Below, in pieces: positions 8,701 to 52,680 of a stretch of DNA of 64,000 nucleotides. Within the stretch, counting starts at the first letter, position 1; every line of letters starts with the position of its first letter. Made by a program: the position numbers and the translations under genes. The DNA is taken from the NCBI RefSeq assembly GCF_035084215.1, contig NC_090332.1, forward strand, positions 40,734,001-40,798,000, read 5' to 3'. This DNA is from Heptranchias perlo. Taxonomy: Eukaryota. The notes under the pieces were generated by a model that had not been told where the DNA came from, made no database searches, and saw nothing but the letters and a program-made list of their open reading frames with translations.

Positions 8701-8864
8701 TGTTCCCCATGCGAACACGACTTAATTGGTGGCCGTTAATCTTGTTTTCGGGTTTGTCGTCTGAAAGCTGCGCAGCCCGAATGACAGGCTGTCAGCTGCA
8801 ACGTCTAGGATTAAAGGGCCATGGCTCCAATGGATTTTGCTGGAGCAAGGAGCAAGAAGACACA

Positions 8865-10841: not shown

Positions 10842-11166
10842 TCACAAAGGGTATGCACAAGGGTGTCGGACAGACTGTCATGTTTTTAATTTATATTTGT
10901 TTTTTGTTAAAGTCACATTAAATGTTATCATTCTCACCACTACTGCCACGTCTTGCCCATTCTTGACTGGCTTTTGTAATAGCGCCCTTTCATGTGCTTC
11001 ATCATGAAAGGCAACACTTGATGCCACCAGTGGGTGTCTTTACAGTGGGTCTATGTGTAGTTGCAGGACTGTTTTGTGCAGGGGGTTGGCGGAGGGGGGG
11101 TGATGTTGGTGTTGGCGCTGCTCTTTCCATGTGATGTAAGGACTGGGCTATTCTCACTTTGTGGTC

Positions 11167-12390
11167 TTATGAGAACCGTTCAGATATGAGTGACTCCCTG
11201 GCCTCATAAGCAGCCAGGTGAGCTGCTGCTCTGCCCATGGGTTCGTCCTTCTCCTCCTCCTGCTGCCCCTGCTCCTCCTCAATATTCATTGTAAATGTGG
11301 ATGCTGGATGAGGACATGGGGCCTCATCAACCGGTACCCCCTCTCTGTTGCGCCACATTGTGCAGGACACAACACACTACAATAATGCGACCCAATCTCG
11401 CTGGTGCATATTGAAGCGCTCCGCCAGAACGATCGAGGCACTGAAATCGCATCTTCAGCAGTCCTATCGCATGTTCAATTACAGACCTGGTGGCGATGTG
11501 GCTGTCGTTGTATCGACACTGTTGCTCGCTGATGGCGTTCCTCAGAGGTGTCATCAGCCACGTGTGCAGGGGGTATCCCTTGTCCCTGAGGAGCTATCCC
11601 TTAAAGCTGTTTGGTGCGTGGAAGAGGTCTGAGATGTTGGATTCCCTCAGAATGAAGGAATCATGGCAGTTGCCAGGGAATCTGGCGCTTACGTGAAGAA
11701 ATCTTTTGCTGTGGCCACAAACGAGCTGAGCGTTGATGAAGTGATACCCCTTTCTGTTGATGAACAGTCCTGGCTCGTGCGGAGGTGCTCGGATTGCTAT
11801 ATGCATGCAATCGATTGCATCCTGTACACGTGGGAAGCCAGCTACAGAGTGGAATCTCACTGCCCTCTCTGTCTGGCTGAGGTTGTCCATGGGGAAGTTG
11901 ACATAGTGCGAGGCCCTGCGAAACAAACCATCGGTGACCTGCCTTATACACTTGTGGACAGACGACTGAGAGACCCGGCGATGTCCCCGGTGGCACCCTG
12001 GAATGATTCGGAGGCAAAGAAGTTGAGGGCGTTGGTCACTTTAACAGCGACGGGTAATGAGTTGCCGCCAGGCCCAGCCGGGAGCAGCTCGCCACAAAGG
12101 AGGCTGCAGATGTCTGCGACTATCTGGCGACTCACTCTGAGCCTCCGTATGCACTGCTCCTCAGAGAGGTCCAGGAAGCTGAGCCTCGGTCTGTAGGCCC
12201 TCTGACGAGGGTAGTGCCTCCTGCGACGTCGGTCCCTCTGTTGTTCCCCTCTGTGCTCTTGTGCAGGTGCCTGTGGTGCAGCACTGTGTTGTGGGGCTAC
12301 AAGTGGTGGAAGTGCACGCCATGCCTGCCGAGGATGGTGATGTTCCTCGTCCTCGAATGTACTGGTGAATGCAGCCATCACGCCCCCTAT
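11167..12390 (-). pseudogene. Harbinger DDE transposase (HARBI1/DDE_Tnp_4-like), frameshifted
   Basis: [57 protein letters not shown] and CCVLHN are spread over ORFs 11944-12447, 11594-11926, 11327-11554 and 11167-11370. Confidence 0.9.
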
Positions 12391-13207
12391 CCTGATGGTG
12401 TCAGTTGGTAAATATGTGTAAACAGAAGAATTCTGAGTGGAAACCAAGAATTTTCAATCTAAGCACAAAGATCTCCCAGCCAAAAGTTTGTTTGAGAGGA
12501 CTGAGTGCCCTGCTGCAATAACTCAGCTTTTATCCCCATCTGTCAAACAGTGATTTAAATGTCCAAATGGCTGCCGGCTGCAACCCGCCGACTTTCCTAT
12601 ACCATGTTTCACACAGCATGGGAAACACGTTCAGGCAGCATTGAAATCGCTTGCCTTCATAGTTAATTGCATTTATGGATTTTTTTAACTACTTTAAATA
12701 GTTGAATTGCTGCTTTAAATATCGGCACGCGCACCCAGATGGCTCTGGGTTGTGCGCGTTCTTTGGGGTGTTGGAGCCAGGATTTCTGCCCGCTCCTCAA
12801 AAATTTGCCCCCCTGCCCCCTATTCCACTCAGGAAAATAAATAATAGAATTTTTGTAAATTGAGCATAAAGAAATGCAGCAAAATCAATAGTCTTTCAAA
12901 GACGGGGCAGAAGTAGGGTTAAGCCAGTTGGACAGAAGCAACAGTGGGGTCCAGAAGCAAGTTGAACAAGAAGAAAGGAAGGGGGAAGAAAGTGCGGGGC
13001 CAGGCTGGTTGACAGTGCAGAAGCGGGGCTCGGGCAGGAAGAGGAAGATAGTAGAGTAGATCCCAAAGGGGACTTAAAGCAGCTAGGATAGTGCAAGGTT
13101 GGCTAACAGTATAAGGCACGAAGAATGGAATGGGGCAGAATTTCCAGGGGACCTAAAGTGCTACAGCACCCTACCATCGGCAGGAAGGTGTAATTACAGT
13201 GTGACAA

Positions 13208-14203
13208 GTTCCTCAGGGCAGTGTCCTAGGCCCAACCATCTTCAGCTGCTTCATCAATGACCTTCTCTCCATCATAAGGTCAGAATTAGGGATGTTCTCT
13301 GATGATTGAAGAGTGTTCAGTTCCATTCGCAACCCCTCAGATAATGAAGCAGTCCGAGCCCACATGCAGCAAGACCTGGACAACATCCAGGCTTGGGCTG
13401 ATTAGTGGCAAGTAACATTCGTGCCAGACAAGTGCCAGGCAATGACCATCTCCAACAAGAGAGAATCTAACCACCTGCCCTTGACATTCAACGGCATTAC
13501 CATCGCTGAATCCCCCACCATCAACATCGTGGGGTCACCATTGACCAGAAACTTAACTGGACCAGCCACATAAATACTGTGGCTACAAGAGCAGGTCAGA
13601 GGCTGGGTATTCTATGGCGAGTGACTCACCTCCTGACTCCCCAAAGCCTTTCCACCATCTACAAGGCACAAATCAAGAGTGTGATGGAATATTCTCCACT
13701 TGCCTGGATGAGTGCAGCTCCAACAACACTCAAGAAGCTCGACACCATCCAGGACAAAGCAGCCCGCTTGATTGGCACCCCTTCCACCACCCTAAACATT
13801 CACTCCCTTCACCACCGACGCACCGTGGCTGCAGTGTGTACCATCCACAGGATGCACTGCAGCAACTCGCCAAGGCTTCTTCGACAGCACCTCCCAAACC
13901 CGTGACCTCTACCACCTAGAAGGACAAGGGCAGCAGGCACATGGGAACAACAACACCTGCACGTTCCCCTCCAAGCCACACACCATCCCGACTTGGAAAT
14001 ATATCGCCATTCCTTCATCGTCGCTGGGTCAAAATACTGGAACTCCCTACCTAACAGGACTATGGGAGAACCTTCACCACACGGACTGTCGTGGTTCAAG
14101 AAGGCGGCTCACCACCACCTTCTCAAGGGCAATTAGGGATGGGCAATAAATGCTGGCCTTGCCAGTGACACCCACATCCCATGAACGAATAATTTAAAAA
14201 AAA
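13208..14203 (+). mobile_element. LINE-B (CR1-group non-LTR element), 5'-truncated 3' fragment
   Basis: VPQGSVLGP...RT C-terminus; 3' tail gggcaataaatgctggccttgcc...catcccatgaacgaat plus A-rich end, shared with the other copies. Confidence 0.9.
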
Positions 14204-14507
14204 TAGGTGCTTTTCATTATAAATGTGGACAAAGGAATTTATAATGGAAAAGTTGACACAGGAATTATGTTCAGATGTAAAATTTTTGTTATAGATAAAT
14301 AAATATATTTGGATTAAATAGAATAGTAATTTTTTTCACCTTGCACCCTTTAAAGAACAGTTGGAGAAATGTAAGGAACTGCAGTACTTTTACTTTATGG
14401 TAATCAGGAACAAGAACCGATACTGATTTTTTTTCAAGAGTTCTAAGACAATTTGTAATGCCACTCTGAATAAGAACAGACAACTCAGTAGAGATAAAAT
14501 ATTTTAA

Positions 14508-17250: not shown

Positions 17251-17967
17251 GGACGAAGGAAGTGGGGGATGTAAAAGAGGCCAGACTTCTAGGAATGTAG
17301 AGTTCTTGGAGGGCTGTAGGGCTGGAGGAGGTTACAGAGATGGGGAGGGGCGAGGCCATGGTAGGCCTTGAACACTAGGATGCTAATTTTCAAATCAATG
17401 CATTGGTGGGCCGGGAGCCAATGTGGGTCAGCAAGCACAGGAGTAATGGGTGAATGGTACGATGCGATTTACGATACAGGCAGCAGATTTTGGATGAGCT
17501 CAAGTTTATGGAGGGTGGAATATGGGAGGCCGGCTAAGAGAATATTGAAATAGTCGAGTCTGGAGGTAACAAAAGCATGGATGAGGGTTTCAACAGTGGA
17601 TGGGCTGAGTTGGGGCAGAGACAGGTGGTGTTATGGAGGTGGAAGTAGGTAGCCTTTGTGATGGAGAGGATAACGGGTCGGAATCTCATCTCAGAATCAA
17701 ATAAGACTCCGAGGTTGCGAACAGTCTGGTTCAGCCTGAGGCAGTGGCCAGGGTGGGGGATAGAATCAGTGGTTAGGGAACCGAGTTGGTGGCGGAGGCC
17801 AAAGACAATGGCTTTGGTCTTCCCAATGTTTAATTGGTGGAAATTTTGGCTCATCCAGGACTGAATGTCGAACAAGCAGTCTGATAATACAGAGAATGTG
17901 GAGGGTTCGAGAGAGCTGGTGGTGAGGTAGAGCTGGGTGTCAACGTACATATGGAATCTGACATCAT
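17250..17967 (-). mobile_element. L2 LINE, 3' portion (split by Harbinger copy 2)
   Basis: MYVDTQLYL...IQSWMSQNFHQLNIGKTKAIVFG...VRNLGVLFDSEM; homologous to the L2 at 41083-43430. Confidence 0.88.
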
Positions 17968-18499
17968 GGCCACGATTTTATCCCTGAAGTCAAGGTGCAT
18001 TGGGGGCGGGGGGGAAGCAAAATCGGGGATTTCTGGAGCGGGAAGGAATCCCGGATCCAACCCGCTGAGAACGTGCACGACTGAGACCCATCTGGGTGCA
18101 CGCATGCTTCAGGAAACCGGAAGTCCTGCCAGCAATTAAAGCCAGCGGGACAATATTTAAACCATCAACCAAGGTAGTTAAAGTTGTCGGAATGGTGATT
18201 TATATTTTTATTGATGCAGGGAAACGATTTCAATGCTGCCTCAATGTGTTTCCCGTGCTGTGTGAAGCAGGCCATGGAAACCTAGGCGGGTTGCAGCTGG
18301 CAGCCATTTGGCCATTTAAATCCCTTTTTGACAGATGGAGATAAAAGGTGAGTTATTGCAGCAGGGCACTCTGTTCTTTCGGACATACTTTTGGCTGGGA
18401 GTTCTTTGTGTTTAGACTGAGAATTCTTGGCTCACACTCAGAATTTGTTCTGTTTACACATATTTACCTACTTTTTGGACCCACCCAAACTGACAACAT

Positions 18500-19711
18500 C
18501 AGGATAGGGGACGCAATAGCTGCATTCTCCAGTACATCTGAGGAGGAGGCACATCACCATCCGCGGCAAGCACGGCATGCAGTTCCGCCACTAGCAGCTC
18601 CACAAGACAGAGGTGTGCCACAGGGACCTGCAGAAGAGCAGAGAGGGGAACAACAGAGGGCCCAACATCACAGGAGGCATTACCTTTGTGAGAGGGTCTA
18701 CAGACAAAGACTGAGCTTGCTGGACCTCTTGGAGGAGCAGTGCCTAGGAAGGCTGAGAATGAGTCGCCAGGTGGTTGCAGACATCTGCATGCTCCTTCAT
18801 GCAGAGCTGCTCCCAGCTGGGCCTGGTGGCATCGCATTGCCCATGACAGTTAAAGTCCCCAATGCCCTCAACTTCTTCGCCTCCGGATCCTTCCAGGGCG
18901 TCACCAATGACATCGCTGGGGTCTCTCAGTCGTCTGCCCACAAGTGCATACGACAGGTCACCGATGGTCTGTTTTGCAGGCTGTCCCACGTCAACTTCCC
19001 CATGGACGACCTCAGCCAGACTGAGAGGGCAGTGGGTTTCCACTCTCTGGCTGGCTTCCCATGGGTACAGAGTGCAATTGATTGCGCAAACGTAGCAATC
19101 CAAGCACCTCCACACAAGCCAGGACTGTTCATCAACAGAAAGGGATATCACACCATCAACGCGCAGTTCGTTTACAACCACTGGAAAAGATTTCTTCACG
19201 TGTGTGCCAGATTCCCTAGCAGCTGCCATGATTCCTTCATTCTGCGGGAATCCAACATCCCGGCCCTCTTCCATGCACCAAACATACTTAAGGGCTGGCT
19301 CTTCGGAGACAAGAGATACCCCCTACAGACGTGGCTCATGACGCCTGTGAGAAACCCCATCAGCGAGGCCAAGCGTCGATACAACAACAGTCATATCACT
19401 ACCAGGTCTGTCATTGAACATGCAATAGGACTGCTCAAGATGTGATTTCAGTCCCTGGATCGATATGGGGGAGCGCTTCGATATGCACCAGTGAGAGTGG
19501 GTAGAATTATAGTCGTTTGTTGCGTCCTGCACAACATCACACAACAGAGAGGATTACTGGTGGACAAGGCCCCATGCCCTCATCCGCATCTGCCATCAAC
19601 ATTGAGGAGGAGGAGGAGGACGAGGAGGATGGGCAACCCATCGGCAGAGCAGCGTCTCACCTGGCTGCTCATGATGCAAGGTGGTCGCTAATATTTGACC
19701 GATTCTCATAA
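18500..19711 (+). pseudogene. Harbinger DDE transposase, nearly intact (start eroded, premature TGA at 19443-19445)
   Basis: ORF 18348-19445 carries SAIDCANV, FINRKGYHTINAQ, HDSFILRES, FGDKRYPL and [14 protein letters not shown]; homology continues past the stop to CCVLHN and an acidic tail. Confidence 0.92.
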
Positions 19712-20036
19712 GGACATCTGCAAAGTGAGGATGGTCCAGTCCTCAGACCACCTGGAACAAGCACTGCGAACACCAGACACTCCCGTCTCCACCCCCTGCA
19801 CAAAACAGTCCTACAACTACTCATACACCCACTGTAAATGCACCCACTGGGTGGCATCTAGTCTCACCATTTATGATGAAGCACATGAAAGGACGTTTTC
19901 ACAAAAGGCAGTCAAGAATGGGCAAGACGTGGCAGTAGTGTTGAGAATGCTAACATTTAATGTGAATTTAACAAAAAACAAATATAAATGAAAAACATGA
20001 CAGCCTGTCATACACTCTTGCGCATACCCTTCGTGA

Positions 20037-21877
20037 TCACAAAACCTTAGCCTTTTGCTTCCTAATACTTCTACATGGTGCATCCCCTGTGGCTGTAACA
20101 GAGGTAGTGGCAGGTTGCTCATGTTCATGCCCTGACTGTTGAGATGCTTTGGGCTTACAGCCTCCGGGCTTTGGAGCCTGTGAGGGCCCCGCCAAAGACT
20201 GCTCCACCTGCACCTGTGCAGGGGCAGACTCGGCCACTTGAAGAGGAGGCAGCATTGTGGGTAGTGGTTGAGTGGGGGGTGCAACAGATGAGATGTGGGA
20301 GTGCTTTGAGTGGCGTCCCCACTTCCATGTCCTCTTTCGCCATCATCCCTCTCCAGGTCCAGGGCCACAACATTCCTACCACCCTGCTGGACAATAGTTT
20401 GGAGGACATGTGTGATGCCTTGTAAGTCCACTTCTAAAGTATCTGTCAGCTTCTTTAAGACGGCAGAATGTTGTTCAGGCCGTTGTCAGGGCCTGAATGG
20501 ACTCATTTATGAGCCGTGCTTGAAGCTCAATGGAGGCTAGCCTTCTCTCCATTGCAGTCATTGCCGCACTTACCTGCGCCACTATTCCACTAATGCTGGA
20601 GATGGTCTCCTCCATGCTCTCAGCTATTGTGGAGAGTGTGCGTGGCACCTGTTCCAGTACCTCGCAAATGTGCTGCTGTCCCTCGACCATTCTCCTTTTA
20701 AAGGATGGCCCCCAGGGTTCAGCATCTGCATCCAGCTGAGCAGAGCCTGGAGAGGAGTGCGCCCCACGAGGCGGTCTCTCCGCAGCTGCCCCTGCCATCA
20801 ATGTCTGTTCATACTCACTCTCGTGTGGTGACTCACCAGTTGCCAACCCAGCTAACTGACCACTAGAACCCACTGAAGTGTGAGTATCTGCGTTGGTGCA
20901 TGGCTCACTAAGATGTGACGGTTCGCCCTCAGAGGCTGGGAGCTCCTCTGAGGAATCGCCCTCTTCCACCACTTCTGTCCTTGAAGGGCCTGGAAGAGAA
21001 CAGACGGCAATATTAAGAATCATCACAGATGTGTCATGTTGCGATGAACATACTGAGGTGTTCAACATGTCAATCATTCATAACATCAATTCATGTTGTG
21101 TATGATGAATGTTAAAGTTTCATCACCAGATGTTTGTGGCATTGACAGTCTTGGCATCCCCGAGGGACAGGCACTTGAGGGTGTGGCTGTTGTCCAGGGC
21201 CTCCTCTTCTTCCTCTGTGAGGACCACTATTTGTTGTGGTCCCCCTCCAGTCCTCGCCCTCTCCCGTGCATTCTGAACTCTCTTCTCCTACAAGGGGAGA
21301 AAGTACAGACGTGTGAGTGAGTGAGGGTGAAGTGGTCAGCCAATGAATACATTGCTTTGGGTGAGGCTGACCATGAAAGAGATGCATCAGAGGGTGAGTA
21401 TCAGACAGAGACATCACATTGGATCAGGATTGGGGTGAGTGGTAGTGGTAGGTTCACAAATGGGGAGGTGAGGAAGTGCTCATGAAGTGAAGGTAAGTTG
21501 AGGATGAGCCTTAAGTGGGTGTGAGGAATGATGTGATGGAGTAGTCTTGGCAGAGCAGAATGTGAGGGGGGTGCGGGGGGGGGGGGGTGAGGTTGATTTG
21601 CACCAAGGAATGCAGGAGAATCAGTAAGTGTACTCACTTTTGCTGACCCAGTTAGGTCATTGAAGCGATTCCTGCACTGCATCGAAGTGCAGGAGATGTT
21701 GCTCCTTCTGGTCACCTCCTCAGCCACCTCGAGCCAGGCCTTCTTGGTGGCAGAGGCAGGGTGCTTTCTCCTGTCCACCATCTAAAATATTTCCCTTTTC
21801 CTCCTCTCCCCGGCCAGCAGCACCTCAAGTGAGGCATCACTGAATCTTGGAGCTGGCTTGCCCCTCTGCTGCTCCAT
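20037..21877 (-). pseudogene. Harbinger Myb/SANT-like gene, 3 exons, decayed
   Basis: MEQQRGKPAPRFSDASLEVLLAG...KKAWLEVAEEV...QCRNRFNDL; same intron positions as copy 1 (e.g. ctcttccag|gcccttca acceptor). Confidence 0.8.
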
Positions 21878-22145
21878 TCTGCCCGATTCCTCGTTTGTCC
21901 AGCAAAAGCCATTGATGCAGTGGCCCTTTAAATACAGACACTCCAGCTGACAGGCCTTATGGGTGCGCAGTCTGTCCGCTGCGCAGCTTTCAGACAGCAA
22001 ACCCGGAAACCACGTTAAGGGCCATCAATTAAGCCGCCATCGCGTGGGGAAAGGTAGGGATTTTTTTTCAGGTTTCCAGCGCGCCGATTGACCCCCCCAC
22101 CCACTCCCGCCACTGCCATCCCGCCAGCATATTAAAATCATGGCC

Positions 22146-22640
22146 CTTGTCTTCAGATGTTGCTATGGGGCAGCATGTAGATGATAAAAAGGAGGGGGCC
22201 AAGGATAGATCCTCGAGGGACTCCAGAGGTAACGGTGCAGGGGCGGGAAGAGAAGCCATTGCAGGAGATTCTCTGGCTACGACTGGATAGGTAAGAGTCG
22301 AACCAGGTGAGGGCAGGCCCACTCAGCTGGACAACAGAGAAGAGGCGTTGCAGGAGGATGATGTGGTCAACTGTGTGAAAGGCTGAAGTCAGATTGAGAA
22401 GGATGAAGAGGAATAGTGCACCATGGTCACAATCACAGAGGGTATCATTTCTGACTTTGATTTCAGTGCTGTAGTGGGGCAGAAACCTGATTGGAAAGGT
22501 TCAAACATGGAGATGGGGAAAGATGGGCACGGATTTGGGAGGCAAAATTACGTTGAAGGACTTTGGAGATGAAAGGGAGGTTAGAGATAGGGCAGTAGTT
22601 TGCAAGGACAGAGGGGTTAAGGGTAGGGATTTTTGAGGTT
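22146..22640 (-). mobile_element. L2 LINE, upstream portion (continuation of 17250-17967)
   Basis: Minus-strand GVP.GSILGPLLF..YML and .LS.AF.TVDH motifs; joins the left part across the Harbinger insertion. Confidence 0.85.
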
Positions 22641-26689: not shown

Positions 26690-28051
26690 TTAGATGGGCA
26701 TGAGAGGATGAGAGTTTTTAATGAGGACTGGGCCCAGAAATAACATGAATGAAGGCAGCTGTAAAAATACAAAAAACAAATATTTAATTTGAGACAGTTT
26801 TCTGGAACAATATGTTCTGGAACCAACAAGAAAACAGGCCATATTAGATTTAGTGATGAGTGATAAGGCTGAATTAGTCAACAATCTAATGGTAAGGGAG
26901 CATCTAGCTAACAGTGGCCACAATATGATTGAATTCGATGTCATGTTTGAGAGGGAGAAGGGTGAGTCATGAACTGAGATTTTAAATTTAGGTAAGGTGG
27001 ACTTTGGAGGGATAAGCCTGAAAATGACCACAGTAGACTGGGTAGAACTATTAATAGATAAAACTACAGATGAGCAGTGGGAGGTATTCAAATAAATATT
27101 TGGTAGATTATAAGACCTGTACATACCCATAATGGGCAAGAGCTCTGCTTGTGTAATTAAGCAACCTTGGTCAACAAGAGAAATGAGAGATAATATAAAA
27201 CTAAAAGAAAGGGCTTACATGAATGCAAAGAACAGTAGAGATCCTGCAGATTGGGAGAGATATGAAGAACAGCAAAGGAATATAAAGAAAGCAGTCAGAG
27301 CTGCAAAAAAGGGAATATGAGAAAAAAAACTTGCAAGGGATATCAAAGACAACAATAAAGGTTTTTACAAGTATATTAAGAGAAAGAGGATGGCTAAGAG
27401 TAATGTATGCCCATTAAAGACAGATGCAGGTGATATTGTAATTGAAAATCAGGAAATGGCAGACTTGCTAAACACTTACTTTGTATCGGTCTTCATAGTA
27501 GACGATGAGGATAAAGTACCAGGGATACAAGGAAACTAAAAATAAATCAAGGGGAGGAACTTACTAGATTTAACATAAGTTTAAAAAATGGTGATGGAGA
27601 AAATAATGAGACTAAAGATAGACAAATCTTCAAGACCTAATGGTTTCCACCCCAGGGTATTAAAGGATGTAGATGAGGAAATTGTGGATGCTCTAGTCAT
27701 GATCTAGATTATCCCCTTGGATTGGAAAATTGCCAATGTCGCTCCATTATTTAAGAAGGGTAAAAGAGATAAACTAGGAAATTATAGGCCTATTAATCTA
27801 ACGTCTGTTGTGGGGAAGTTACTAGAAACTGTTATTAGGGACAGAGTTACCAAGCACTTGGAAAGATATGAACTGCTCAGAGAGAGCTAGCATGGATTTG
27901 TAATGGGTAAGTCATGTCCAACGAACCTAGTTGAATTTTTTGAGGAGATAACTAATGTGATAGATAAGGGAGTGTCTATGGATGTTATTTATATGAACTT
28001 CCAGAAGGCATTTGATAAGGTTCCACATAAAAGGCTGTTAACAAAAATGAG
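26690..28051 (+). mobile_element. CR1-A, 5' part of ORF2 (outermost host of the nested cluster)
   Basis: FLEQYVLEPTRKQAILDLVM...NYRPINLTSVVGK...MNFQKAFDKVPHKRLLTKM; breaks at ATGAG (28047-28051). Confidence 0.88.
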
Positions 28052-28560
28052 TAGTGATTTGGGTAAAAACAAGCAGTGTGTGTCAGGAAGGGACAGAGAG
28101 TTTGACAAAGGTAATAGGGCATTCGTGACTCAGGTCACATCAGGGAAAAATAATAAAAAGTTTAAATTAAAGGCGCTATATCTGAATGCACGAAGAATTT
28201 GTAACAAAATAGATGAATTAATGGCACAAATAGAGATAAATGGGTTTGATCTAGTAGCCATAACTGAGACGTAACCAGGGTAACCAACGTTGGGAACTAA
28301 ATATTCCAGGGTACTTGACTTTTAGGAGAGATAGGCAAAATGGAAAAGGAGTGGGGGTGGGGGGGGGGGGGTAGCCACGATAATAAAGGATGGGATAAAG
28401 GCAGCAGTGAGAAAGGATTTTAGCTCAGAAAATCAGGATGTATAATCAGTATGGGTGGAGCTAAGAAATAACAAGGGGTAGAAAACACTGGTGGGAGTAA
28501 TTTATAGGCCCCCCTAACAGTAGTTATAGTGTTGAACAAAGTATAAATCAGGAAATTAGA

Positions 28561-30895
28561 GGACCTCATCCTCACCAATCCACCTGTCGCAAATGCATCT
28601 GTCCATGACAGTATTGGTAGGAGTGACCACCGCACAGTCCTCGTGGAGATGAAATCCCGTCTTCGCACTGAGGACACCATCCAACGTGTTGTGTGGCACT
28701 ACCACCGTGCTAAATGGGATAGATTCAGAACAGATCTAGCAGCTCAAAACTGGGCATCCATGAGGCGCTGTGGGCCATCAGCAGCAGCAGAATTGTATTC
28801 CAGCACAATCTGTAACCTCATGGCCCGGCATATTCCTCACTCTACCATTACCAACAAGCCAGGGGATCAACCCTGGTTCAATGAGGAGTGTAGAAGAGCA
28901 TGCCAGGAGCAGCACCAGGCGTACCTAAAAATGAGGTGCCAACCTGGTGAAGCTACAACTCAGGACTACATGCATGCTAACAGCGGAAGCAACATGCTAT
29001 AGACAGAGCTAAGCGATTCCACAACCAACGGATCAGATCAAAGCTCTGCAGTCCTGCCACATCCAGTCGTGAATGGTGGTGGACAATTAAACAACTAACG
29101 GGAGGAGGAGGCTCTGCAAACATCCCCATTCTCAATGATGGCGGAGTCCAGCACGTGAGTGCAAAAGACAAGGCTGAAGCGTTTGCAACCATCTTCAGCC
29201 AGAAGTGCCGAGTGGATAATCCATCTCAGCCTCCTCCCGATATCCCCACCATCACGGAAGCCAGTCTTCGGCCAATTCGATTCACTCCACGTGATATCAA
29301 GAAACGGCTGAGTGCACTGGATACAGCAAAGGCTATGGGCCCTGACAACATCCCAGCTGTCGTGCTGAAGACTTGTGCTCCAGAACTCGCTGCGCCTCTA
29401 GCCAAGCTGTTCCAGTACAGCTACAACACTGGCATCCACCCGACAATGTGGAAAATTGCCCAGGTATGTCCTGTCCACAAAAAGCAGGACAAATCCAATC
29501 CGGCCAATTACCGCCCCATCAGTCTACTCTCAATCATCAGCAAAGTGATGGAAGGTGTCGTCGACAGTGCTATCAAGCGGCACTTACTCACCAATAACCT
29601 GCTCACTGATGCTCAGTTTGGGTTCCGCCAGGACCACTCGGCTCCAGACCTCATTACAGCCTTGGTCCAAACATGGACAAAAGAGCTGAATTCCAGAGGT
29701 GAGGTGAGAGTGACTGCCCTTGACATCAAGGCAGCATTTGACCGAGTGTGGCACCAAGGAGCCCTTGTAAAATTGAAGTCAATGGGAATCAGGGGGAAAA
29801 CTCTCCAGTGGCTGGAGTCATACCTAGCACAAAGGAAGATGGTAGTGGTTGTTGGAGGCCAATCATCTCAGCCCCAGGGCATTGCTACAGGAGTTCCTCA
29901 GGGCAGTGTCCTAGGCCCAACCATCTTCAGCTGCTTCATCAATGACCTTCCCTCCATCATAAGGTCAGAAATGGGGATGTTCGCTGATGACTGCACAGTG
30001 TTCAGTTCCATTCGCAACCCCTCAGATAATGAAGCAGTCCGAGCCTGCATACAGCAAGACCTGGACAACATCCAGGCTTGGGCTGATAAGTGGCAAGTAA
30101 CATTCGTGCCAGACAAGTGCCAGGCAATGACCATCTCCAACAAGAGAGAGTCTAACCACCTCCCCTTGACATTCAACGGCATTACCATCGCCGAATCCCC
30201 CACCATCAACATCCTGGGGGTCACCATTGACCAGAAACTTAACTGGACCAGCCATATAAATACTGTGGCTACGAGAACAGGTCAGAGGCTGGGTATTCTG
30301 CGGCGAGTGACTCACCTCCTGACTCCCCAAGCCTTTTCACCATCTACAAGGCACAAGTCAGGAGTGTGATGGAATACTCTCCACTTGCCTGGATGAGTGC
30401 AGCTCCAACAACACTCAAGAAGCTCGACACCATCCAAGATAAAGCAGCCCGCTTGATTGGCACCCCATCCACCACCCTAAACATTCACTCCCTTCACCAC
30501 CGGCGCACTGTGGCTGCAGTGTGCACCATCCACAGGATGCACTGCAGCAACTCGCCAAGGCTTCTTCGACAGCACCTCCCAAACCCGCGACCTCTACCAC
30601 CTAGAAGGACAAGGGCAGCAGGCGCATGGGAACAACACCACCTGCACGTTCCCCTCCAAGTCACACACCATCCCGACTTGGAAATATATCGCCGTTCCTT
30701 CATTGTCGCTGGGTCAAAATCCTGGAACTCCCTTCCTAACAGCACTGTGGGAGAACCGTCACCACACGGACTGCAGCGGTTCAAGAAGGCGGCTCACCAC
30801 CACCTTCTCGAGGGCAATTAGGGATGGGCAATAAATGCCGGCCTTGCCAGCGACGCCCACATCCCGTGAACGAATAATAAAAAAAATTTTAAAAA
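28561..30895 (+). mobile_element. LINE-B, young 5'-truncated copy with near-intact RT (two frameshifts)
   Basis: ORFs 28643-29002, 29155-30369 (YRPISLLS, ALDIKAAFDRVWH, GVPQGSVLGP, FADD) and 30366-30821; A-rich tail; interrupts the CR1-B endonuclease. Confidence 0.95.
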
Positions 30896-32155
30896 TGTAA
30901 CAAGGGTTACGCAATAATCATGGGGGACTTCAATCTACATATAGACTGGGCAAACCAAATTGGCAAAAGTAGTTTGGAAGATGAGTTCATGGAATGCATT
31001 CAAGTCAGTTTTCCAGAACAATATGTCGAGGAACCAACTAGGAAATAGGCTATTTTAGATCTAGTATTGTGTAATGAGACAGGGTTAATTAGTAATCTTA
31101 TTGATAAGGATCCTCTGGGGTAGAGTGATCATAATATGATAGAATTTCATATTGAGTTTGAGAGTGATGTAGTTAAGTCTGAAACTCGGGTCTTAAATTT
31201 AAACTAGGCCAATTATGTAATTATGAGGGGCGAGTTGGCTAAGGTAGATTTGGAAAATTAGATTAAAAGATATGACGGTAGATAAGTAATGGCGAATATT
31301 TAAAGAAATATTTCATAATTCTCAACGAATATAAATTCCCTTGAGGAATAAAAATTCCACAGGAAACATGATCCAACCGTAGCTAACTAAAGAAGTTAAG
31401 GATAGTATTAGATTAAAAGAAGAGGCTTACAATGTTGCCAAAAAGAATAGTAAGCCTGAGGATTTGGAGGGATTTAGAAATCAGCAAAGAATGACCAAGA
31501 AATTGATAGAGGGAGAAAATTGAATATGAGAGTAAACTAGCTAGAAATATAAAAGCAGATTGTAAGAGTTTCTATGTGTATGTAAAAAAGAAGAGAATAG
31601 CGAAAGTAAACATGGATCCCTCAGAGGCAGAGATAGGAGAAATTATAATAGGGAATAAGGAAATGGCAGAGACGTTAAACAAATATTTTCACAGTAGAAG
31701 GCACAATAAACATACCAGAAATAGGGGGAAATCCAGGGTCTAATGAGAGCGAGGAACTTAAAGGAATTAAGATTAGTAAAGAAAAAGTACTGCAGAAATT
31801 AATGGGACTAAAATCCGACAAATCCCCTGGACCTGATGATCTACATGGTCCCCGTGTATTTGAGGTAGCAAATGTAACCGCACTATTCAAGAAAGGAGAA
31901 AGAGAGAAAACAGGGAACTATAGGCCAGTTAGCCTGACATCAGTAGTAGGGAAAATGGGTGAATCTATTATTAAGGACGTGGTAACAGGGCATTTAGAAA
32001 ATAATCATATGATTAGGCAGAGTCAGCGCGGTTTTATGAAAGGGAAATCGTGTTTGACAAATCTATTAGAGTTTTTTGAGGGTGTAACTAGCAGGATAGA
32101 TAAGGGGGAACCAATCGATGTAGTATATTTGGATTTTCAAAAGGCATTCGATAAG

Positions 32156-35100
32156 TCTTAAACAAGCATGATTTTACCCGGAGAGTTACATAGGGTTAGG
32201 CTGAAGCCAGCATTTACGTCCCCTGGAAGTATTTAACTCTCGGAGAGTTACACAGGATTGGGCCTGAAGCCAGCATGGACCCACTGTATATGTCTAACTC
32301 TCCTCCTCCAACTGTGGGACTTCTGGCTAAAAGCCACTCTTTATATACTCTATTTCTGCCAGTGGAATGTGCAGTTTTGCTCGCACTGTTTGCAGGTAGT
32401 GAGCTAGATAATATTAGTTTCTCTTTTTCTTATCTGGGCAAGAGTGGTCAAAATATTCCTGGAATCGGTGCAAAGGTCACCCTGCAGTCGGTACCATTTT
32501 CGCAGAAGCAGAACGAAGTTTCTCCAAAATAGCTGTCTCAGGCAGTTTCCTGAGGGTCTGCAGCTTTCCAGTTATCTGACCACATTGTTCTGTTAGAAGG
32601 TTCAGTAGTTATCCATGGTGCTGCTTCATTATACTTTGCCCACTGCCTGGTTCTGCTACTCAATCTTAGTCTTTAATCCGTTTACAGCTAATTTCATATT
32701 TAATAGATTCTTAGCTTATTTGATAGATTCTTACAATCCCCACCTTGTGAGGGAAATATCCTTATTGACCCCTCATAATATTGTTACCGTTTGATCAACG
32801 CCGCCAACTCTAAGTTATTAGTTCGATTGCCCAATTTCCTTATCAAACAACGTTTCATTTGGTTAAAATCACACATTGTGATACAGACAAAAAAAATCAT
32901 AATACACTGTACAGAAAACTACAGTGTATCATATTATCAAGAAATCACGGACTTAAAAGATTATCCAGCTAATATCCATCTTGTGGATATTTTTCCTTTG
33001 TTGTCCCAATTTCATTGTTAAGTGAAAGGAACCTAACCCCGAATTTTGGAAATCCAAATTATTATGTCCTTCTTTATTTTAATTTCAATCCCTCTGATAG
33101 GTACCAGTGTTTCCTGATTGTATTGCTAATTAGTGGAGCATGTGTCAGTGCATTACTTAAAAGGTTTTCTCGCTCTCCTGAGCCACATTAACCATTTCAT
33201 GTCATGCTGTTGTCAAGTAACTGAGCATGTCTAAGTTCTTCAGTGCATCTTTATCATGCATTTCCGCATACTGGTCGTCTCAGACGCAACATATCAAAGG
33301 TAATGTTCTTGATTATTAATTTCTTGCTGGCCAGTCTCTTCTTCCTTATGGTATTTCCGAACGTGTTTTCCACAGCACACATCATATGTCCAGTAAGATT
33401 CAATCCTGTAAGAGCAACTGGTCTGTTTAAAGAGTGTTTCCAATAGCTCACCAGGCCATTGGCCTTTGCAATCATGCTCTGCATCCTGGTCTCCGTTTCC
33501 AATTGATGGTAACGTACATTTGTATTTTTCACGTCCACTGTAGCCATTCTTGGGCTTTCAGGTTATTTTGTCAAAAGATTGGGGGCTGTCTGGAGGTTTT
33601 TGCTTATCTCCCCCTGCATGGTCCCAATGTCTCAGGTAGTGGCCAGGCTATCAAATGCAGTTTTCTCATTGTTCAGTATAGGCAAGGACATATCTCTATG
33701 AGAAAGCTATCAATTTACTATTCTCAACTACACCTCCCTGACTTTCACTGGATTGTACATTTATACCAGATGGGTAATTTTTGGTAAACCATGACTTTAG
33801 AGAAATTCCCATTTGGTGGTGTAATTTCTCTGTTTCTATCTTATATTGTCAATCACTTCCTCTCATCCAATTTTACACATCCCATTATATTACCATTTCA
33901 TCTCATTCATTAGCCCTGGAGAAACTTTACTGTCCATTACAGGCTGGTCCAGTATGAATACATTTTTGGTTTATTTCATCGAATTCTTCTTGGACTGCTT
34001 TTCATTTCCTAAAATATCCCGTTAAATTGTGCCTGAGTCCATTCCATCATTTCAAAATTATCCTAATTCCAAAGAGCAGTATTGTTGGACTGACAAGTCT
34101 TGTCAATGTACAATTTTATTTTCCCCCAAAATGCTTTCTTCCTTGATACACATCTTTGGATAAAGAACCATTTAGACTGGACTTCTTTTATTTTAAAATA
34201 TAACTTGATTATCTCCTTAAACAACAGGTAACTTTTCCCTTTTTGAGTGCTTAAACAGCAACTCATATCAATTTATCTTATCAATTCAAATTTCAGAAAC
34301 AAATTATGTCCAGGCTTTGTGGTTTTACAGTAGAGACAGAAGTGCTTGTAATTATTTTTGTATGTAACTCCCATATCTCCCCACCTCATGCACTCTGTCT
34401 CGCAAGACAATAGATAACCCTGAATTGGTTAAAGCCAAGCCTTTGAGATGCAAAGTCTCAGTCCAAATCGTCACCCACTGTGATACTGGATATCTGCCGA
34501 TGTCTGCTGATAAGGTCTTAAATTCTTCACACCGCTGGATCGTTTCCTGCACCAAGACCTTTGCGGTCCCAAAAACCAAAAAAGAAAAATAGGAAATACT
34601 TTGTGGCTCTTTTTAAGAGACCAAGGGGTTAAAAGTAACAAACAATTCATTAAATTTCTTCTGTCACCCTTTATCCCAGGACCAGAGAGGACTCCATGCA
34701 CGTTTCCGTGAATGAATCTAATTACCTCACTCCAGGAGGAATAGTCAGCAAAGGGAGCACAAAAATAATGTCCAATATTTCCTTCTATCACATGGGGAAA
34801 TAGCCACTTAAATTAAGAAACTTAAAAATTTCATATGCTTATCTAAAGCACTATGCTAACAGCACTAAATGATCTATTTTAAAGAGTAATCCCTTTAAAC
34901 TGAAATAAACCTAGAAAAATGTCCAGAGGAAGATGGGAAAGACTGACTAGCTTCTCCATCTATCTCCCAAAGTTTCTCTCTCTCTCGGAACTCACTAAGG
35001 GACAGTAAAAGTGCTTACGAGTCAGCAGATTAACCTGCTGGAAGCTCAGAGGGTGGGGAAGAAGTCAATCACAATAGCAGTTTTATTTTAGCTGTGATGT

Positions 35101-41082: not shown

Positions 41083-43430
41083 ATGTCAATCACTGATAAA
41101 GCCATCTCTGATCACTTCCTTGTATCCCTCTCCACCCACATCCCCCTTCCTCCTCCCAACCCCACTTCCTTCTGTATCCGCCCCGGAAAAAACTGTTCCC
41201 CCACGACACTTATAATTGCACTTTCAAATTCCCAACTGTCTAGCCTTTGGCCCTCCAATCACCACAACATTTCTGCAGCTATCGATCTGCTCAATCATAC
41301 CCTCACCTTCACCTTTGATGCCTTTGTCCCCATTAAAACCATTACTCTCTCTTACCCTGGTCCTTCCCTCTGGTATGGCCCTAATCTCCACTCCTTAAAT
41401 CCAAGGGACGCAGACTTGAACGTTTATGTTGGACAACTGGTTTAGCTATTCTTCGCCAGATCTGGCTGGACCACATAAAGCACTATCGGGTCCTGCTCTC
41501 CTCTGCCAAAACTGCTCACTATTCCAGGATCATCCTAGAATGCAAAGACAACCCCCGGCTTCTCTTCACCACTACAAACCATCTTCTTAAACCCCTCTCC
41601 CCTGCCTCTCCACCCTCACCTCCAACGAAAAGTACGACGAACTCATGGACTTCTTTGTCACTAAGATTGAGACCATTCGTTCTGCTGCTTCCTTCCCTTC
41701 CCCTAGCCCACTAGCCAAACTTCCCCTAAGGTTATCCCCTGCCCTAACCCTGAACTTGCATCTTTCTCCAGTTTCTCTCCTATCTCCCCTCATGCCCACT
41801 CCAAATTGATCTTGACGATGAGTCCCACCTCCTGCTCCCTCAACCCTATTCCCTCCAAACTGCTGACCAACCAACTTCCCTTCCTGGCCCATATTAGCTG
41901 ATAGTGTTAACGGTTCCCTCTCAAGTACTGCCTCACTCCCCATCAAATCTGCTGTCATCACCCCCCTCAAAAAACCCACCCTTAATCCCTCTGGTCTTGC
42001 AAACTACCGCCCCATCACCAACTTCCCTTTCCTCTCCGAAGTCCTTGAACGTGTTGTCACCTCCCAAATCCATGCCCATCTTTCCTGCAACTCCATGTTT
42101 GAATCCCTCCAATCAGGTTTCCGCCCCGCCACAGTATTGAAACGGCCTTTATCAAAGTCACAAATTACATCCTGTGTGACTGTGACCATGGTAAACTATG
42201 CTTCCTCATCCTTCTTGACCTGTCTGCAGCCTTTGACACGTTGACCACACCATCTTCCTCCAAGGCCTCTCCTCTATCGTCCAGCTGGGTGGGACTGCGC
42301 TCACCTGATTCCATTCTTATCTATCCAGTCGTAGCCAGAGAATCACCTGCAATGGCTTCTCTTCCCACTCCCGCACCGTTACCTCTGGAGTCACCCAAGG
42401 ATCTATCCTTGGCCCCCTCCTATTTCTCATCTACATGCTGCCCCTCAGCAACATCATCCGAAAACACATTGTCAGATTCCACATGTATGCTGACAACACC
42501 TGGCTGTACCTCACCACCACCTCTCTTGACCCCTCCACTGTCTTTCTTTTGTCACACTGCTTCTCCAACATCCAGTACTGGGTGAGCAAAGATTTCCTCC
42601 AACTAAATATTGGAAGGACCGAAGCCATTGTCTTTGGTCCCCACCGCAAACTCCGTTCCCTAGCCATCGACTCCATCCCTCTCCCTGCTCACTGTCTGAG
42701 GCCAAACCAGACTGTTCGTAACCTTGGCCCTGACCCTATTTGACCCTGAGATGAGCTTCCGACCACAAATCCGCTCCATCACCAAGACCGCCTACATCCA
42801 CCTCCGTAACATCGCCCATCTGCCTCAACTCATCTGCTGCTGAAACCTTTATCCATGTCTTTGTTACCTCTAGACTTGACTATTCCAATGCTCTCCTGGC
42901 TGGCCTCCCATCTTCCACCCTCCATAAGCTTGAGCTCATCCAAAACTCTGTTGCCTGTTGCCCGTATCCTAACTCACACCAAGTCCCATTCTCCCATCAC
43001 CCCCGTGCTCGCTGACCTACATTGGCTCCCGATCCGGGAACGCTTTGTTTTAAAATTCTCATCCTTGTTTTCAAATCCCTCCATGGCCTCGCCCCTCCCT
43101 ATCTCTGTAACCTCCTCCAACCCTACCACCCTCCAAGATCTCTGCGCTCCTCCAATTCTTGCCTCTTGCGCATCCCCGATTTTAATCGCTCCACCATTGG
43201 TGGCCGTGCCTTCAGCTGCCCTGGCCCTAAACTCTAGAATTCCCTCCCTAAACCTCTCTGCCTCTCTACCTCCTTTAAGGCGTTCCTGAAAACCTACCTC
43301 TTTGACCACCTGTCCTAATATCTCCTTATGTGCCTCGGTGTCAAATTTTGTTTGCGTACACTCCTGTGAAGCGCCTTGCGATATTTTACTACATTAAAGG
43401 CGCTATATAAATGCAAGCTGTTGTTGTTGC
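41083..43430 (+). mobile_element. L2 LINE, 5'-truncated and decayed
   Basis: ISDHFLV, NYRPITNFPFLSEVLERVV, LLDLSAAFDT.DH, GVTQGSILGPLLF, MYADNTWLY; L2-type tail aaggcgctatataaatgcaagc(tgt)n. Confidence 0.92.
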
Positions 43431-45339: not shown

Positions 45340-47914
45340 TTTTTTTTATTCGTTCATGGGATGTGGGCGTCGCTGGCGAGGCCAGCATTTATTGCCCATC
45401 CCTAATTGCCCTTGAGAAGGTGGTGGTGAGCTGCTTTCTTGAACCGCTGCTGTCCGTGTGGTGAAGGTTCTCCCACAGTGCTGTTAGGAAGAAAGTTCCA
45501 GGATTTTGACCCAGCAACGATGAAGGAACGGCGATATAGTTCCAAGTTGGAATGGTGTGTGACTTGGAGGGGAACATGCAGGTGGTGTTGTTCCCATGTG
45601 CCTGCTGCCCTTGTCCTTCTAGGTGGTAGAGGTCGCGGGTTTCGGAGGTGCTGTCGAAGAAGCCTTGGCAAGTTGCTGCAGTGCATCCTGTGGATGGTAC
45701 ACACTGCAGCCACTGTGTGCCGCTGGTGAAGGGAGTGAATGTTTAGGGTGGTGGATGGGGTGCCAATCAAGCGGGCTGCTTTGTCCTGGATGGTGTCAAG
45801 CTTCTTGGGTGTTGTTGGAGCTGCACTCATCCAGGCAAGTGGAGAGTATTCCATCACACTCCTGAGTTGTGCCTTGTAGATGAGGGAAAGGCTTTGGGGA
45901 GTCAGGAGGTGAGCCACTCGCCACAGAATACCCAGCCTCTGACCTGCTCTTGTAGCCACAGTGTTTATATGGTTGGTCCAGTTAAGTTTCTGGTCAATGG
46001 TGACCCCCAAGATGTTGATGGTGGGGGATTCGGCGATGGTAATGCCGTTGAATGTCAAGGGGAGGTGGTTAGACTCTCTCTTGTTGGAGATGGTCATTGC
46101 CTGGCACTTGTCTGGCACGAATGTTACTTGCCACTTATCAGCCCAAGCCTGGATGTTGTCCAGGTCTTGCTGCATGCGGGCTCGGACGGCTTCATTTTTT
46201 GAGGAGTTGCGAATGGAACTGAACACTGTGCAATCGTCAGCGAATATCCCCATTTCTGACCTTATGATGGAGGGAAGGTCATTGATGAAGCAGCTGAAGA
46301 TGGTTGGGCCTAGGACACTGCCCTGAGGAACTCCTGCAACAATGTCCAGGGGCTGAGATGATTGGCCTTCAACAACCACTACCATCTTCCTTTGTGCTAG
46401 GTATGACTCCAGCCACTGGAGAGTTTTCCCCTCTTTCCCATTGACTTCAATTTTACAAGGGCTCCTTGGTGCCACACTCGGTCAAATGTCACTCTCACCT
46501 CACCTCTTGAATTCAGCTCTTTTGTCCATGTTTGGACCAAGGCTGTAATGAGGTCTGGAGCCGAGTGGTCCTGGCGGAACCCAAACTGAGCATCAGTGAA
46601 CAGGTTATTGGTGAGTAAGTGCCGCTTGCTAGCACTGTCGACGACAACTTCCATCACTTTGCTGATGATTGAGAGTAGACTGATGGGGCGGTAATTGGCC
46701 GGGTTGGATTTGTCCCGCTTTTTGTGGACAGGACATACCTGGGCAATTTTCCACATTGTCGGGTAGATGCCAGTGTTGTAGCTGTACTGGAACAGTTTGG
46801 CTAAAGGCGCAGCTAGTTCTGGAGCACAAGGCTTCAGCACTACAGCTGGGATGTTGTCGGGGCCCATAGCCTTTGCTGTATCCAGTGCACTCAACCGTTT
46901 CTTGATATCACGTGGAGTGAATCGAATTGGCTGAAGACTGGCTTCTGTGATCGTGGGGATAGTGGGAGGAGGCCGAGATGGATCATCCACTTGGCACTTC
47001 TGGCTGAAGATGGTTGCAAACGCTTCAGCCTTGTCTTTTGCACTCACGTGCTGGACCTGCCAGCATTGAGGATGGGGATGTTTACAGAGCCTCCTCCTCC
47101 CGTTAGTTGTTTAATTGTCCACCACCATTCACGACTGGATGTGGCAGGACTGCAGAGCTTTGATCTGATCCGTTGGTTATGGAATCGCTTAGTTCTGTCT
47201 ATAACATGTTGCTTCCGCTGTTTAGCATGCATGTTGTCCTGAGTTGTAGCTTTACCAGGTTGGCACCTCATTTTTAGGTACGCCTGGTGCTGCTCCTGGC
47301 ATGCTTTTCTACACTCCTCATTGAACCAGGGTTGATCCCTTGGCTTGTTGGTAATGGCAGAGTGAGGAATATGCCGGGCCATAAGGCTACAGATTGTGCT
47401 CGAATACAATTCTCCTGCTGCTGATGGCCCACAGCACCTAATGGATGCCCAATTTTGAGCTGCTTGATCTGTTCTGAATCTATCCCATTTAGCACGGTGG
47501 TAGTGCCACACAACATGTTAGATGGTATCCTCAGTGCGATGTTGAGACTTTGTCTCCACAAGGACTGTGCAGTGGTCACTCCTACCAATACTGTCATGGA
47601 CAGATGCATTTGCATCAGGTAGATTGGTGAGGACAAGGTCAAGAAAGTTTTTCCCTCGTGTTGGATCGCTCACCACCTGCCGCAGCCCCAGTCTGGCAGC
47701 TTTGTCCTTCGGGACTCGGCCAGCTCGGTTAGTAGTGGTGCTACCGAGCCACTCTTGGTGATGGACGTTGAAGTCCCCCACCCAGGGTACATTCTGTGCC
47801 CTTGCTACCCTCAGTGCTTCCTCCAAGTGGTGTTCAACATGGAGGAGGACTGATTCATCAGCTAAGGGAGGGTGTTAGGTGGTAATCAGCAGGAGGTTTC
47901 CTTGCCCATGTTTG
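45340..47914 (-). mobile_element. LINE-B, 3' (sense) part of a full-length copy with 5' inversion
   Basis: A-tail (T-run on +) at about 45340; RT and EN ORF pieces 45402-46475, 46397-47047, 47044-47511 and 47518-47826 (GDFNVHH, GRSDH). Confidence 0.95.
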
Positions 47915-47980
47915 GGTACGGTAGCATAGTGGTTATGTTACTGGACTAGTAATCCGGAGTCATGAGTTCAAATCCTGCCA
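47915..47980 (+). promoter_or_regulatory. tRNA-Thr(AGT)-like internal Pol III promoter (box A and box B)
   Basis: Box A TAGCATAGTGG 47922-47932; anticodon arm CTGGA-CTAGTAA-TCCGG 47941-47957 (anticodon AGT); box B GTTCAAATC 47966-47974. Confidence 0.8.
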
Positions 47981-48650
47981 TGGTAGCTGGGGAATTTAAG
48001 TTCAATTAATTAAATTTTTAAAATCTGGAATTAAAATACTAATATCATTAATGGTGGCCATGAAACTACCGGATTGTCGTAAAAACCCATCTGGTTCACT
48101 GATGTCCTTTAGGGAAAGAAACCTGCTGTCCTTACCTGGTCTGGCCTATATGTGACTCCAGACCCACAGCAATGTGGTTGATTCTTAATTGCCCTCTGAA
48201 ATGGCCTAGCAAGCCACTCAATTGTAAAATCTCGCTAAAAAAGGTCATAATAAGAATAAAATCGGACAGACCACCCGGCATCGGACCACTAGGCACCGGA
48301 CACGATAAAGGCAAACCAAGCCCAGTTGACCCTGCAAAGTCCTCCTCACTAACATCTGGGGACTTTTGCCAAAATTGGGAGAGCTGTCCCACAGACTAGT
48401 CAAGCAACAGCCTGACATAGCCATACTCACAGAATCATACCTTTCAGCCATCGTCCCAGACTCTTCCATCACCATCCCTGGGTATGTCCTGTCTCACTGG
48501 CAGGACAGACCCACCAGAGGTGGCGGTACAGTGATATACAGTCAAGAGGGAGTGGCCCTGGGAGTCCTCAACATTGACTCTGGACCCCATGAAATCTCAT
48601 GTCATCAGGTCAAACATGGGCAAGGAAACTTCCTGCTGATTACCACCTAC
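47915..48650 (+). mobile_element. LINE-B inverted 5' part: tRNA-like head, short leader, endonuclease N-terminus
   Basis: tRNA-like head 47915-47980, then KVLLTNIWGLLPKLGEL...PDIAILTESYL...RGGGTVIY from about 48330; ends in a 39-bp segment that is also present at the start of the minus-strand part. Confidence 0.88.

Positions 48651-51132: not shown

Positions 51133-52680
<1,548 letters not shown>

Follow-up and report, generated by a model that had tools for sequence, protein, structure and literature searches.

A recently active shark LINE with a tRNA-like head, a single open reading frame without an AUG start and a deficit of RNA polymerase III termination motifs

Results

LINE copies at the locus

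The window analysed here, a stretch of 64,000 nt from the 3.25 Gb genome of the shark Heptranchias perlo, contains fragments of three LINE families, LINE-B, CR1 and L2. It also holds an exon of an EML-type WD40 gene, and thus the LINE copies are probably intronic. The features on which the analysis draws are as follows (T4 and T5 denote runs of four and five T).

13207-14204, + strand: LINE-B 3′ fragment, no T4
28562-30884, + strand: focal LINE-B copy, 5′-truncated, corresponding to young-consensus positions 1010-3333 at 99.3% identity
30810-30821, + strand: end of the focal open reading frame (ORF) with its stop codon
30822-30884, + strand: short 3′ UTR and A-rich tail of the focal copy, common to internally deleted SINE-like copies
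41965-43177, + strand: fragment of a headless L2, used as a control; more L2 at 17265-17963 and 22156-22638
45340-47914, − strand: remainder of the full-length LINE-B copy, sense strand without T4
47914-48650, + strand: inverted 5′ part of the full-length copy (head, leader, beginning of the endonuclease domain); elsewhere in the genome, copies have this part collinear with the ORF
47914-47980, + strand: tRNA-like head, with A box at 47922-47932 and B box at 47966-47974
48015-48019, + strand: T5 in the leader, absent from the consensus
48060-48224, + strand: SINE-body-like leader segment with several upstream AUGs, retained in internally deleted copies
48225-48239, + strand: in-frame stop and, four codons on, the candidate start position (AAA in the window copy)
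51172-51356, + strand: exon of the EML-type WD40 gene (PF23414)
51406-51735, + strand: old decayed LINE-B fragment (81%), continuing at 52369-52671
54510-55036, + strand: LINE-B copy with an internal deletion, left of a CR1 insertion
55037-58163, + strand: CR1 control, young, two-ORF, 5′-truncated here, nine T4
58164-58748, + strand: 3′ continuation of the LINE-B copy at 54510-55036, right of the CR1

The focal copy comprises the end of the endonuclease, a linker, the reverse transcriptase (RT), the 3′ UTR and the A tail, and it sits within a decayed CR1, which its flanks match. It is a truncated member of a recently active 3.3-kb retrotransposon. The sole full-length LINE-B copy in the window (45340-48650) has its 5′ 736 nt inverted, with a 39-nt overlap at the inversion joint, an arrangement that resembles the twin-priming inversions of L1. 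The nesting of the two families is reciprocal, as a young CR1 lies within a LINE-B copy (54510-58748) and the focal LINE-B lies within a decayed CR1 (27500-32200). A separate older subfamily was considered as the source of the fragment at 51406-51735; its best matches, however, are 82-84%, indicating a decayed copy instead. A Harbinger-like DNA transposon with a DDE_Tnp_4 frame and a Myb/SANT-like frame is also present in the window, at 8615-12660 and 18214-22149, as an inverted pair whose members are about 82% alike.

An earlier note on this DNA had proposed that the LINE-B sense strand is almost free of TTTT, the Pol III terminator, and that its coding sequence may be selected to let Pol III read through, in keeping with the tRNA head. 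The underlying counts were accurate. There is exactly one run of at least four T on the + strand of 28561-30880, at 30334 (30334-30337), the minus-strand copy at 45360-47914 has zero T4 when read on its sense strand, the CR1 at 55037-58163 contains nine, and the leader T5 lies on the + strand at 48015-48019. An additional T4, at 48364-48367, lies beyond the ranges that were named.

Anatomy of the LINE-B family

Two sets of copies were collected from the genome. The older set came from a query consisting of the head and the start of the ORF; 39 of the best 40 places were fetched and 29 near-full-length copies were aligned, leaving out ten with large deletions, inversions or insertions. To avoid selecting copies by their head, the young set was picked with a protein query only, a foreign protein of 39% identity, and 40 of the 47 matches were fetched. 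The older consensus (29 copies) is 3.29 kb long and consists of a tRNA-like head, leader, 972-codon frame, short 3′ UTR and A tail. The young consensus, built from 25 copies that are 98.5-99.6% identical to it, has 973 open codons, and the ORF is open over about 973 codons in most of the 47 protein matches. A 350-nt leader precedes the single endonuclease/RT frame, after which come 57 nt of 3′ UTR and an A tail that is short, its A run measuring 5-14 nt (median 9) across the 40 young copies. Pfam places the endonuclease (PF03372/PF14529) and the RT (PF00078) in one frame in copy L047. Compared with a typical APE-type LINE, LINE-B has no ORF1 and no AUG-started first ORF. Dispersed copies have a common 3′ end and variable 5′ truncation; a crude search for target duplications gave matches of at least 6 nt at 12 of the 40 young copies, several of them of low complexity.

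Throughout the LINE-B family the tRNA head is constitutive. Both boxes are present in 25 of the 40 young copies and the B box only in 3; the 12 copies with neither are truncated or deleted inside the element, one of them at an assembly gap, and by eye their 5′ flanks differ. No ORF1 and no other shared 5′ end was found among these 40 protein-picked copies, and no alternative 5′ end among nine copies picked by internal DNA. Thirteen of the 25 start at the identical base, 8 nt upstream of the A box, and the sequence upstream of it is unrelated. Both boxes fit the box consensus and are exact in both subfamilies, although the spacing between them shifts by 21 nt. The head exists in two forms, the longer of which marks the youngest subfamily. 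As a tRNA the head scores weakly in Rfam (17.1 bits, E=1.6, under the 29-bit cut-off), ARAGORN calls no tRNA in it, and the LINE-B sequence matches no Rfam family above cut-off and no ribozyme. At their 5′ insertion junctions, copies L047, L164 and L194 repeat the opening 15-20 nt of the head as a short duplication in inverted or direct orientation.

A query with the head only returned 30 matches, of which 21 continue into the ORF, 8 are deletions that join head to tail, and 1 stops. The body-to-tail deletions have several different joints, three of them nearly alike. The element is present in sequence runs of at least eight organisms; in four of these the contigs cover all 30 bins of the element and show body-to-tail joints, and contigs of two other organisms span the junction between leader and ORF.

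Relatives of LINE-B

The nearest relatives of the LINE-B protein show 37-45% identity. In a quick RT tree of 45 rows, none of them a named Zenon element, LINE-B is grouped with a moth and a lancelet protein in a set of 30 rows that has support 99; the shark CR1 and L2 fall outside this group. The group may correspond to the one called ‘CR1-Zenon'. The term itself is in use in passages of PMC11481361 and PMC6740152. CR1-group LINEs allied to the Zenon elements of Lepidoptera resemble LINE-B in having one endonuclease plus RT ORF, an A tail and internally deleted derivatives. The relatives of LINE-B differ from it in having a Met start near the endonuclease motif, T4 runs, no A or B boxes and no similarity in the leader. 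According to a passage of PMC6740152, the Zenon-derived Persaeus has neither tRNA homology nor a Pol III promoter. Outside sharks, no head-bearing relative was found in viral contigs or among 80 metagenome loci, many of which include little upstream DNA.

The leader and the start of translation

The leader contains nine AUGs, none of which opens into the ORF, and the first in-frame Met lies at codon 249 in the young consensus and later in the older one. The two consensuses differ at 22 synonymous versus 11 replacement codons. Within the endonuclease part before the first Met there are 6 synonymous and 0 replacement differences, and this part is thus translated. By this comparison of codons the ORF is under purifying selection, including the endonuclease domain upstream of any AUG. 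We regard the anatomy of LINE-B as established, namely that of a young, autonomous single-ORF endonuclease/RT LINE with a SINE-type head, no AUG start and a T-specific shortage of terminator motifs.

The candidate start codon, four codons after an in-frame stop, is ACG in all 31 readable young copies and AAA in most older ones. In the source genome, indels that lie between this codon and the endonuclease motif change the length by a multiple of three, the exception among the 25 young copies being one that is frameshifted just before the motif; in other organisms the indels of the same interval mostly net to multiples of three. A one-base insertion right before the candidate codon is recurrent in older copies. 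Relatives have a similar basic stretch after a Met. These features are consistent with a non-AUG start near the ACG by internal entry, which is the weakest step of the reading proposed below, and 48060-48224 would be a candidate ribosome entry region.

Other routes into the frame were rejected. A −1 frameshift from a 75-codon upstream ORF at an A7 run was discarded because the run is absent from the young, ORF-intact subfamily. An in-frame AUG at leader position 323 would require read-through of the two stops that follow it; of these the TAA shows no variation among 35 young copies, while variation at the TAG fits general TpA mutability. A strongly folded leader was likewise ruled out, as the z score of −2.5 over 443 nt of one copy falls to an unremarkable −0.4 to −1.0 in sub-windows. 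The leader segment 48186-48196 is complementary to the end of the ORF at 30810-30820 (11 perfect pairs, 16 with G-U), and in the SINE-like copies with internal deletions it makes up a local hairpin. This pairing was set aside, since by a rough estimate it is about what chance would give, it is not the best duplex and it shows no compensatory change; only its position is notable.

Termination motifs in LINE-B

The focal copy contains one T4 where 2.8 are expected (p=0.22), a count that is not significant and was not used as evidence. Its T4, at 30334, had been taken for a private mutation. It is indeed a C-to-T change relative to the consensus; the same site, however, carries T4 in 2 of the 29 older copies (0 of the 40 young ones), and the change is thus a recurrent decay mutation and not strictly private. 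Both consensuses contain zero T4, and the older one contains seven TTT. Twenty-one of the 29 older copies lack T4, the other eight sharing 11 scattered runs with no more than two copies per site, and 34 of the 40 young copies lack it as well. The leader T5, which had been flagged as a caveat, is absent from the consensus, a T run occurring at that site in 2 of the 29 copies.

The consensus ORF has 0 T4 versus 1.9-2.1 under codon shuffling (p=0.08-0.10). Over the whole element the count is 0 versus 3.4 (p=0.023), or 0 versus 2.0 under a first-order Markov null (p=0.135). The expectation that T4 would fall below codon-shuffled controls therefore held in direction, with TTTT alone being marginal in the ORF (p about 0.08), and the caveat that the strand is T-poor was apt: T makes up 19-20%, so that about two runs are expected in the ORF. 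By itself the TTTT count is weak evidence for Pol III transcription. TTT is depleted more clearly, both in the ORF (5 versus 12.2, p=0.002) and over the whole element (7 versus 17.4, p=0.001).

Termination by human Pol III is not confined to plain T runs: interrupted T motifs stop it too, whereas TTT in isolation has hardly any activity (data in PMC3141230 and PMC8466645). Canonical and non-canonical motifs together number 2 sites in the older and 3 in the young consensus, against 8.4-9.1 expected under codon shuffling (p=0.005-0.006) and 7.7-8.7 under dinucleotide shuffling (p=0.013-0.014). The A, C and G analogues of these motifs show no depletion in LINE-B under the same shuffles. A weighted score, which combines human efficiencies from the same two sources with two assumed weights and was devised after the T4 count was known, gives p of at most 0.002, with a predicted Pol III read-through of 72% for the older and 38% for the young consensus. 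The young subfamily has gained one TCTTT in the ORF through a silent change, intact in most of its 40 copies; in human assays TCTTT is a moderate terminator, stopping about 50%. In young copies the private mutations are not biased, on balance, against T. Of 40 listed differences between LINE-B and its counterparts in four other organisms, 39 create no new T motif; power is low because only 9 of the 40 are gains of T.

The protein itself is poor in Phe, at 1.95% compared with a median of 4.1% in 131 relatives. A single one of these, the lancelet protein P0012, lies below LINE-B, at 1.5%. Among the youngest copies TpA is as mutable as CpG (23 and 15 per 1000 versus about 5); the TpA changes go to all three bases, with less of an excess among older copies and in L2. 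There are hints in this pattern that the TpA excess of the youngest copies may represent errors made at insertion.

Control LINEs

The T4-rich CR1 had been offered as a contrast to LINE-B. Its nine T4 are real and are shared by 11 of 11 close copies; the number, however, equals what its composition predicts (9 versus 10 expected), so that the difference is largely compositional and was discarded as evidence for LINE-B. The CR1 motif count is likewise as expected (25 versus 24), with a predicted read-through of 7e-11. The young CR1 ORF has no T5 (0 versus 3.1 expected, p=0.015).

L2 (loci L200-L244) was considered as a second tRNA-headed shark family and rejected, as it has no head; in three copies the element begins at the same 5′ point, with a leader full of T4-T7 runs. 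The L2 consensus ORF has 1,069 codons and 26% T, and its first T4 lies at nt 2919 of 3207; a stretch of 2,918 T4-free nt, equal in length to the LINE-B ORF, is followed by four T4 inside the last 290 nt. The ORF holds 4 T4 versus 8.0 expected (p=0.048), a deficit confirmed copy by copy, and its weighted score is 13.7 versus 24 (p=0.013-0.016). L2 keeps the weaker motifs (23 versus 24.4 expected), and the predicted read-through of its ORF is 1e-6. The T4-free stretch of a headless L2 and the CR1 without T5 point to some avoidance of T runs in shark LINEs that is independent of a head.

Relatives from metagenomes gave 80 loci with 68 usable ORFs, none of which (0 of 68) is T4-free. Their lowest weighted score per kb is 4.1, against 0.1-0.3 for LINE-B, and the observed/expected ratio has a median of 0.99 and a minimum of 0.49, against about 0.04-0.11 for LINE-B, in a comparison with elements of other hosts and of higher T content.

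Discussion

In the textbook division of labour, coding LINEs are made by Pol II and non-coding SINEs by Pol III. LINE-B is likely to be a rare protein-coding retrotransposon made by Pol III, given its tRNA-type promoter and its near lack of T-rich terminators. Selection for Pol III read-through, as the earlier note had it, appears to be the best reading of the T-run deficit. In favour of that proposal, the head is constitutive and the deficit extends to interrupted T motifs; the consensus leader carries no T5, and T runs lie below the shuffled expectation, if not cleanly so. The absence of TTTT is not diagnostic, however, and the headless L2 that is T4-free for 2,918 nt and the TCTTT of the youngest LINE-B subfamily both weigh against the proposal.

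We consider it reasonably probable that LINE-B is transcribed end to end by Pol III and then translated, cap-less, from a non-AUG codon. The internal A and B boxes would recruit TFIIIC and TFIIIB, so that every new copy, like a SINE, would come with a promoter of its own. The sense strand is statistically poor in T4 and interrupted T motifs; if these have been purged for this reason, Pol III would run on into the tail and terminate at the first T run of the flank. Ribosomes would gain access to the RNA within the leader and begin translation near the ACG that lies four codons past the in-frame stop, and the protein, by analogy with its family, would bind the 3′ end and insert copies by target-primed reverse transcription. 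Internal deletions yield copies consisting of head, body and tail that look like ordinary tRNA SINEs, and in this scheme such SINEs would arise directly from the coding element. Several observations count against Pol III transcription: the absence of T4 is marginal and is matched by the headless L2, the young subfamily carries TCTTT inside its ORF, TTT is depleted even though isolated TTT does not terminate, which general T-poverty explains equally well, the leader has no strong structure, and the ACG has become AAA in most older copies. The complete proposal, a protein-coding Pol III gene with a 3.3-kb uncapped transcript, recoded throughout against termination, with a non-AUG start and ribosome entry in a SINE-like body, and spawning SINEs by internal deletion, may be right or wrong with about equal probability.

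The main rival, which we regard as possible but distinctly less probable, is that LINE-B is a Pol II LINE that captured the 5′ part of a SINE as its 5′ UTR. The head would then be a passenger, or would aid the start of Pol II, and the T-poor strand would reflect, as in the headless L2, a general pressure on intronless LINE RNA to avoid U-rich signals for splicing, polyadenylation or protein binding. The control elements speak for it, as L2 combines a 2.9-kb T4-free ORF and a weighted deficit with the lack of a head and CR1 has no T5, and it would readily accommodate the TCTTT that the young subfamily tolerates; moreover, LINEs are taken to be Pol II transcripts in the passages of PMC5786205 that treat them. 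Against it stand the boxes, which are exact in both subfamilies despite the 21-nt change in spacing, and the fixed start 8 nt ahead of the A box. The deficit in motif count is found in LINE-B only, and a capped RNA would face nine upstream AUGs and then no in-frame AUG. We hold this reading to be doubtful, although no other alternative comes as close.

It might also be argued that the lack of TTTT is simply chance in a T-poor, Phe-poor and C-rich ORF and is independent of transcription. With 19-20% T only about two runs are expected in the ORF (p=0.08-0.14), and the Phe content of 1.95% lies well under the median of 4.1%, with one lancelet relative even lower. The depletion of TTT and of interrupted T motifs, however, persists when protein and codon usage or dinucleotides are held fixed, and concerns T only, making this explanation improbable. 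The lack of a net bias against T among the private mutations of young copies also counts against it. Least probable of all is a non-autonomous SINE-LINE chimera that depends for its copying in trans on a conventional LINE equipped with a promoter and an AUG. Such a chimera would account for the missing AUG ahead of the endonuclease domain and for the head-plus-tail forms in the source genome and other organisms. Against it count the lack of any other 5′ end among 40 protein-picked and 9 DNA-picked copies, the ORF of about 973 codons that most of the 47 matches keep open, and purifying selection on that ORF.

Like the tRNA SINEs (SINE2: MetaSINEs, the V-SINEs HE1, the Deu-SINEs SacSINE1), LINE-B has a 5′ head with A and B boxes, a body and a LINE-type 3′ end, together with a short A tail and no internal T4, and its deleted copies have exactly this plan. 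LINE-B departs from SINE2 elements in being 3.3 kb long with an intact, selected ORF, the short non-coding form being found only in deleted copies. In the MetaSINE superfamily a 66-bp Meta domain directly follows the head, and the LINE-B body may resemble it. The Meta domain, which is published as a figure, gave no match in those supplementary texts that were searched. SINEs, according to passages of PMC5786205, cannot encode protein.

Bipartite SINEs, such as Bov-tA (from internally deleted Bov-B) and SINE2-1_ACar/Vingi-2_ACar, also combine a tRNA head with LINE-derived parts, and a study has reportedly dealt with SINE pieces at BovB ends. In both examples the tRNA head is joined to 5′ and 3′ parts of a LINE, as described in a section of PMC5786205. 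Bipartite SINEs gain the head after loss of the ORF, whereas in LINE-B the complete coding element already bears the head, and a deletion is enough to give a SINE. Like R2 and L1Tc/Ingi, LINE-B has one ORF, whose translation would proceed from RNA lacking a cap. R2 is co-transcribed by Pol I, is processed by a ribozyme and uses a non-AUG start. The L1Tc/Ingi elements have the Pr77 promoter and an HDV-like ribozyme, and passages of PMC3894237 raise non-AUG starts of the IGR-IRES type as a possibility for non-LTR elements. LINE-B differs from R2 and L1Tc/Ingi in that it has no Rfam ribozyme match and that its 5′ end is a tRNA-type promoter rather than a cleavage site.

Currently no description of a coding LINE with a tRNA head was found in the literature searched, which included parts of PMC5499810, PMC3747384, PMC7245038 and PMC4824008 and had Repbase, Dfam and subscription journals outside its scope; the LINE-B family or its SINE may already be catalogued. 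This study also bears on how Pol III transcription is recognized, since the T4-free coding strand of the headless L2 makes TTTT counts alone unfit for calling it. LINE-B unites the promoter anatomy of a SINE with an intact, selected LINE ORF, and its young copies can be cloned and tested. Internal deletion of such an element provides a one-step route to new SINEs. If LINE-B is indeed made by Pol III it would represent a natural 3.3-kb Pol III messenger, and both the translation of uncapped Pol III RNA in animals and the origin of conserved SINE bodies would become testable questions. The boundary between LINEs and SINEs would then be erased, and some conserved SINE bodies might prove to be former translation signals of LINEs.
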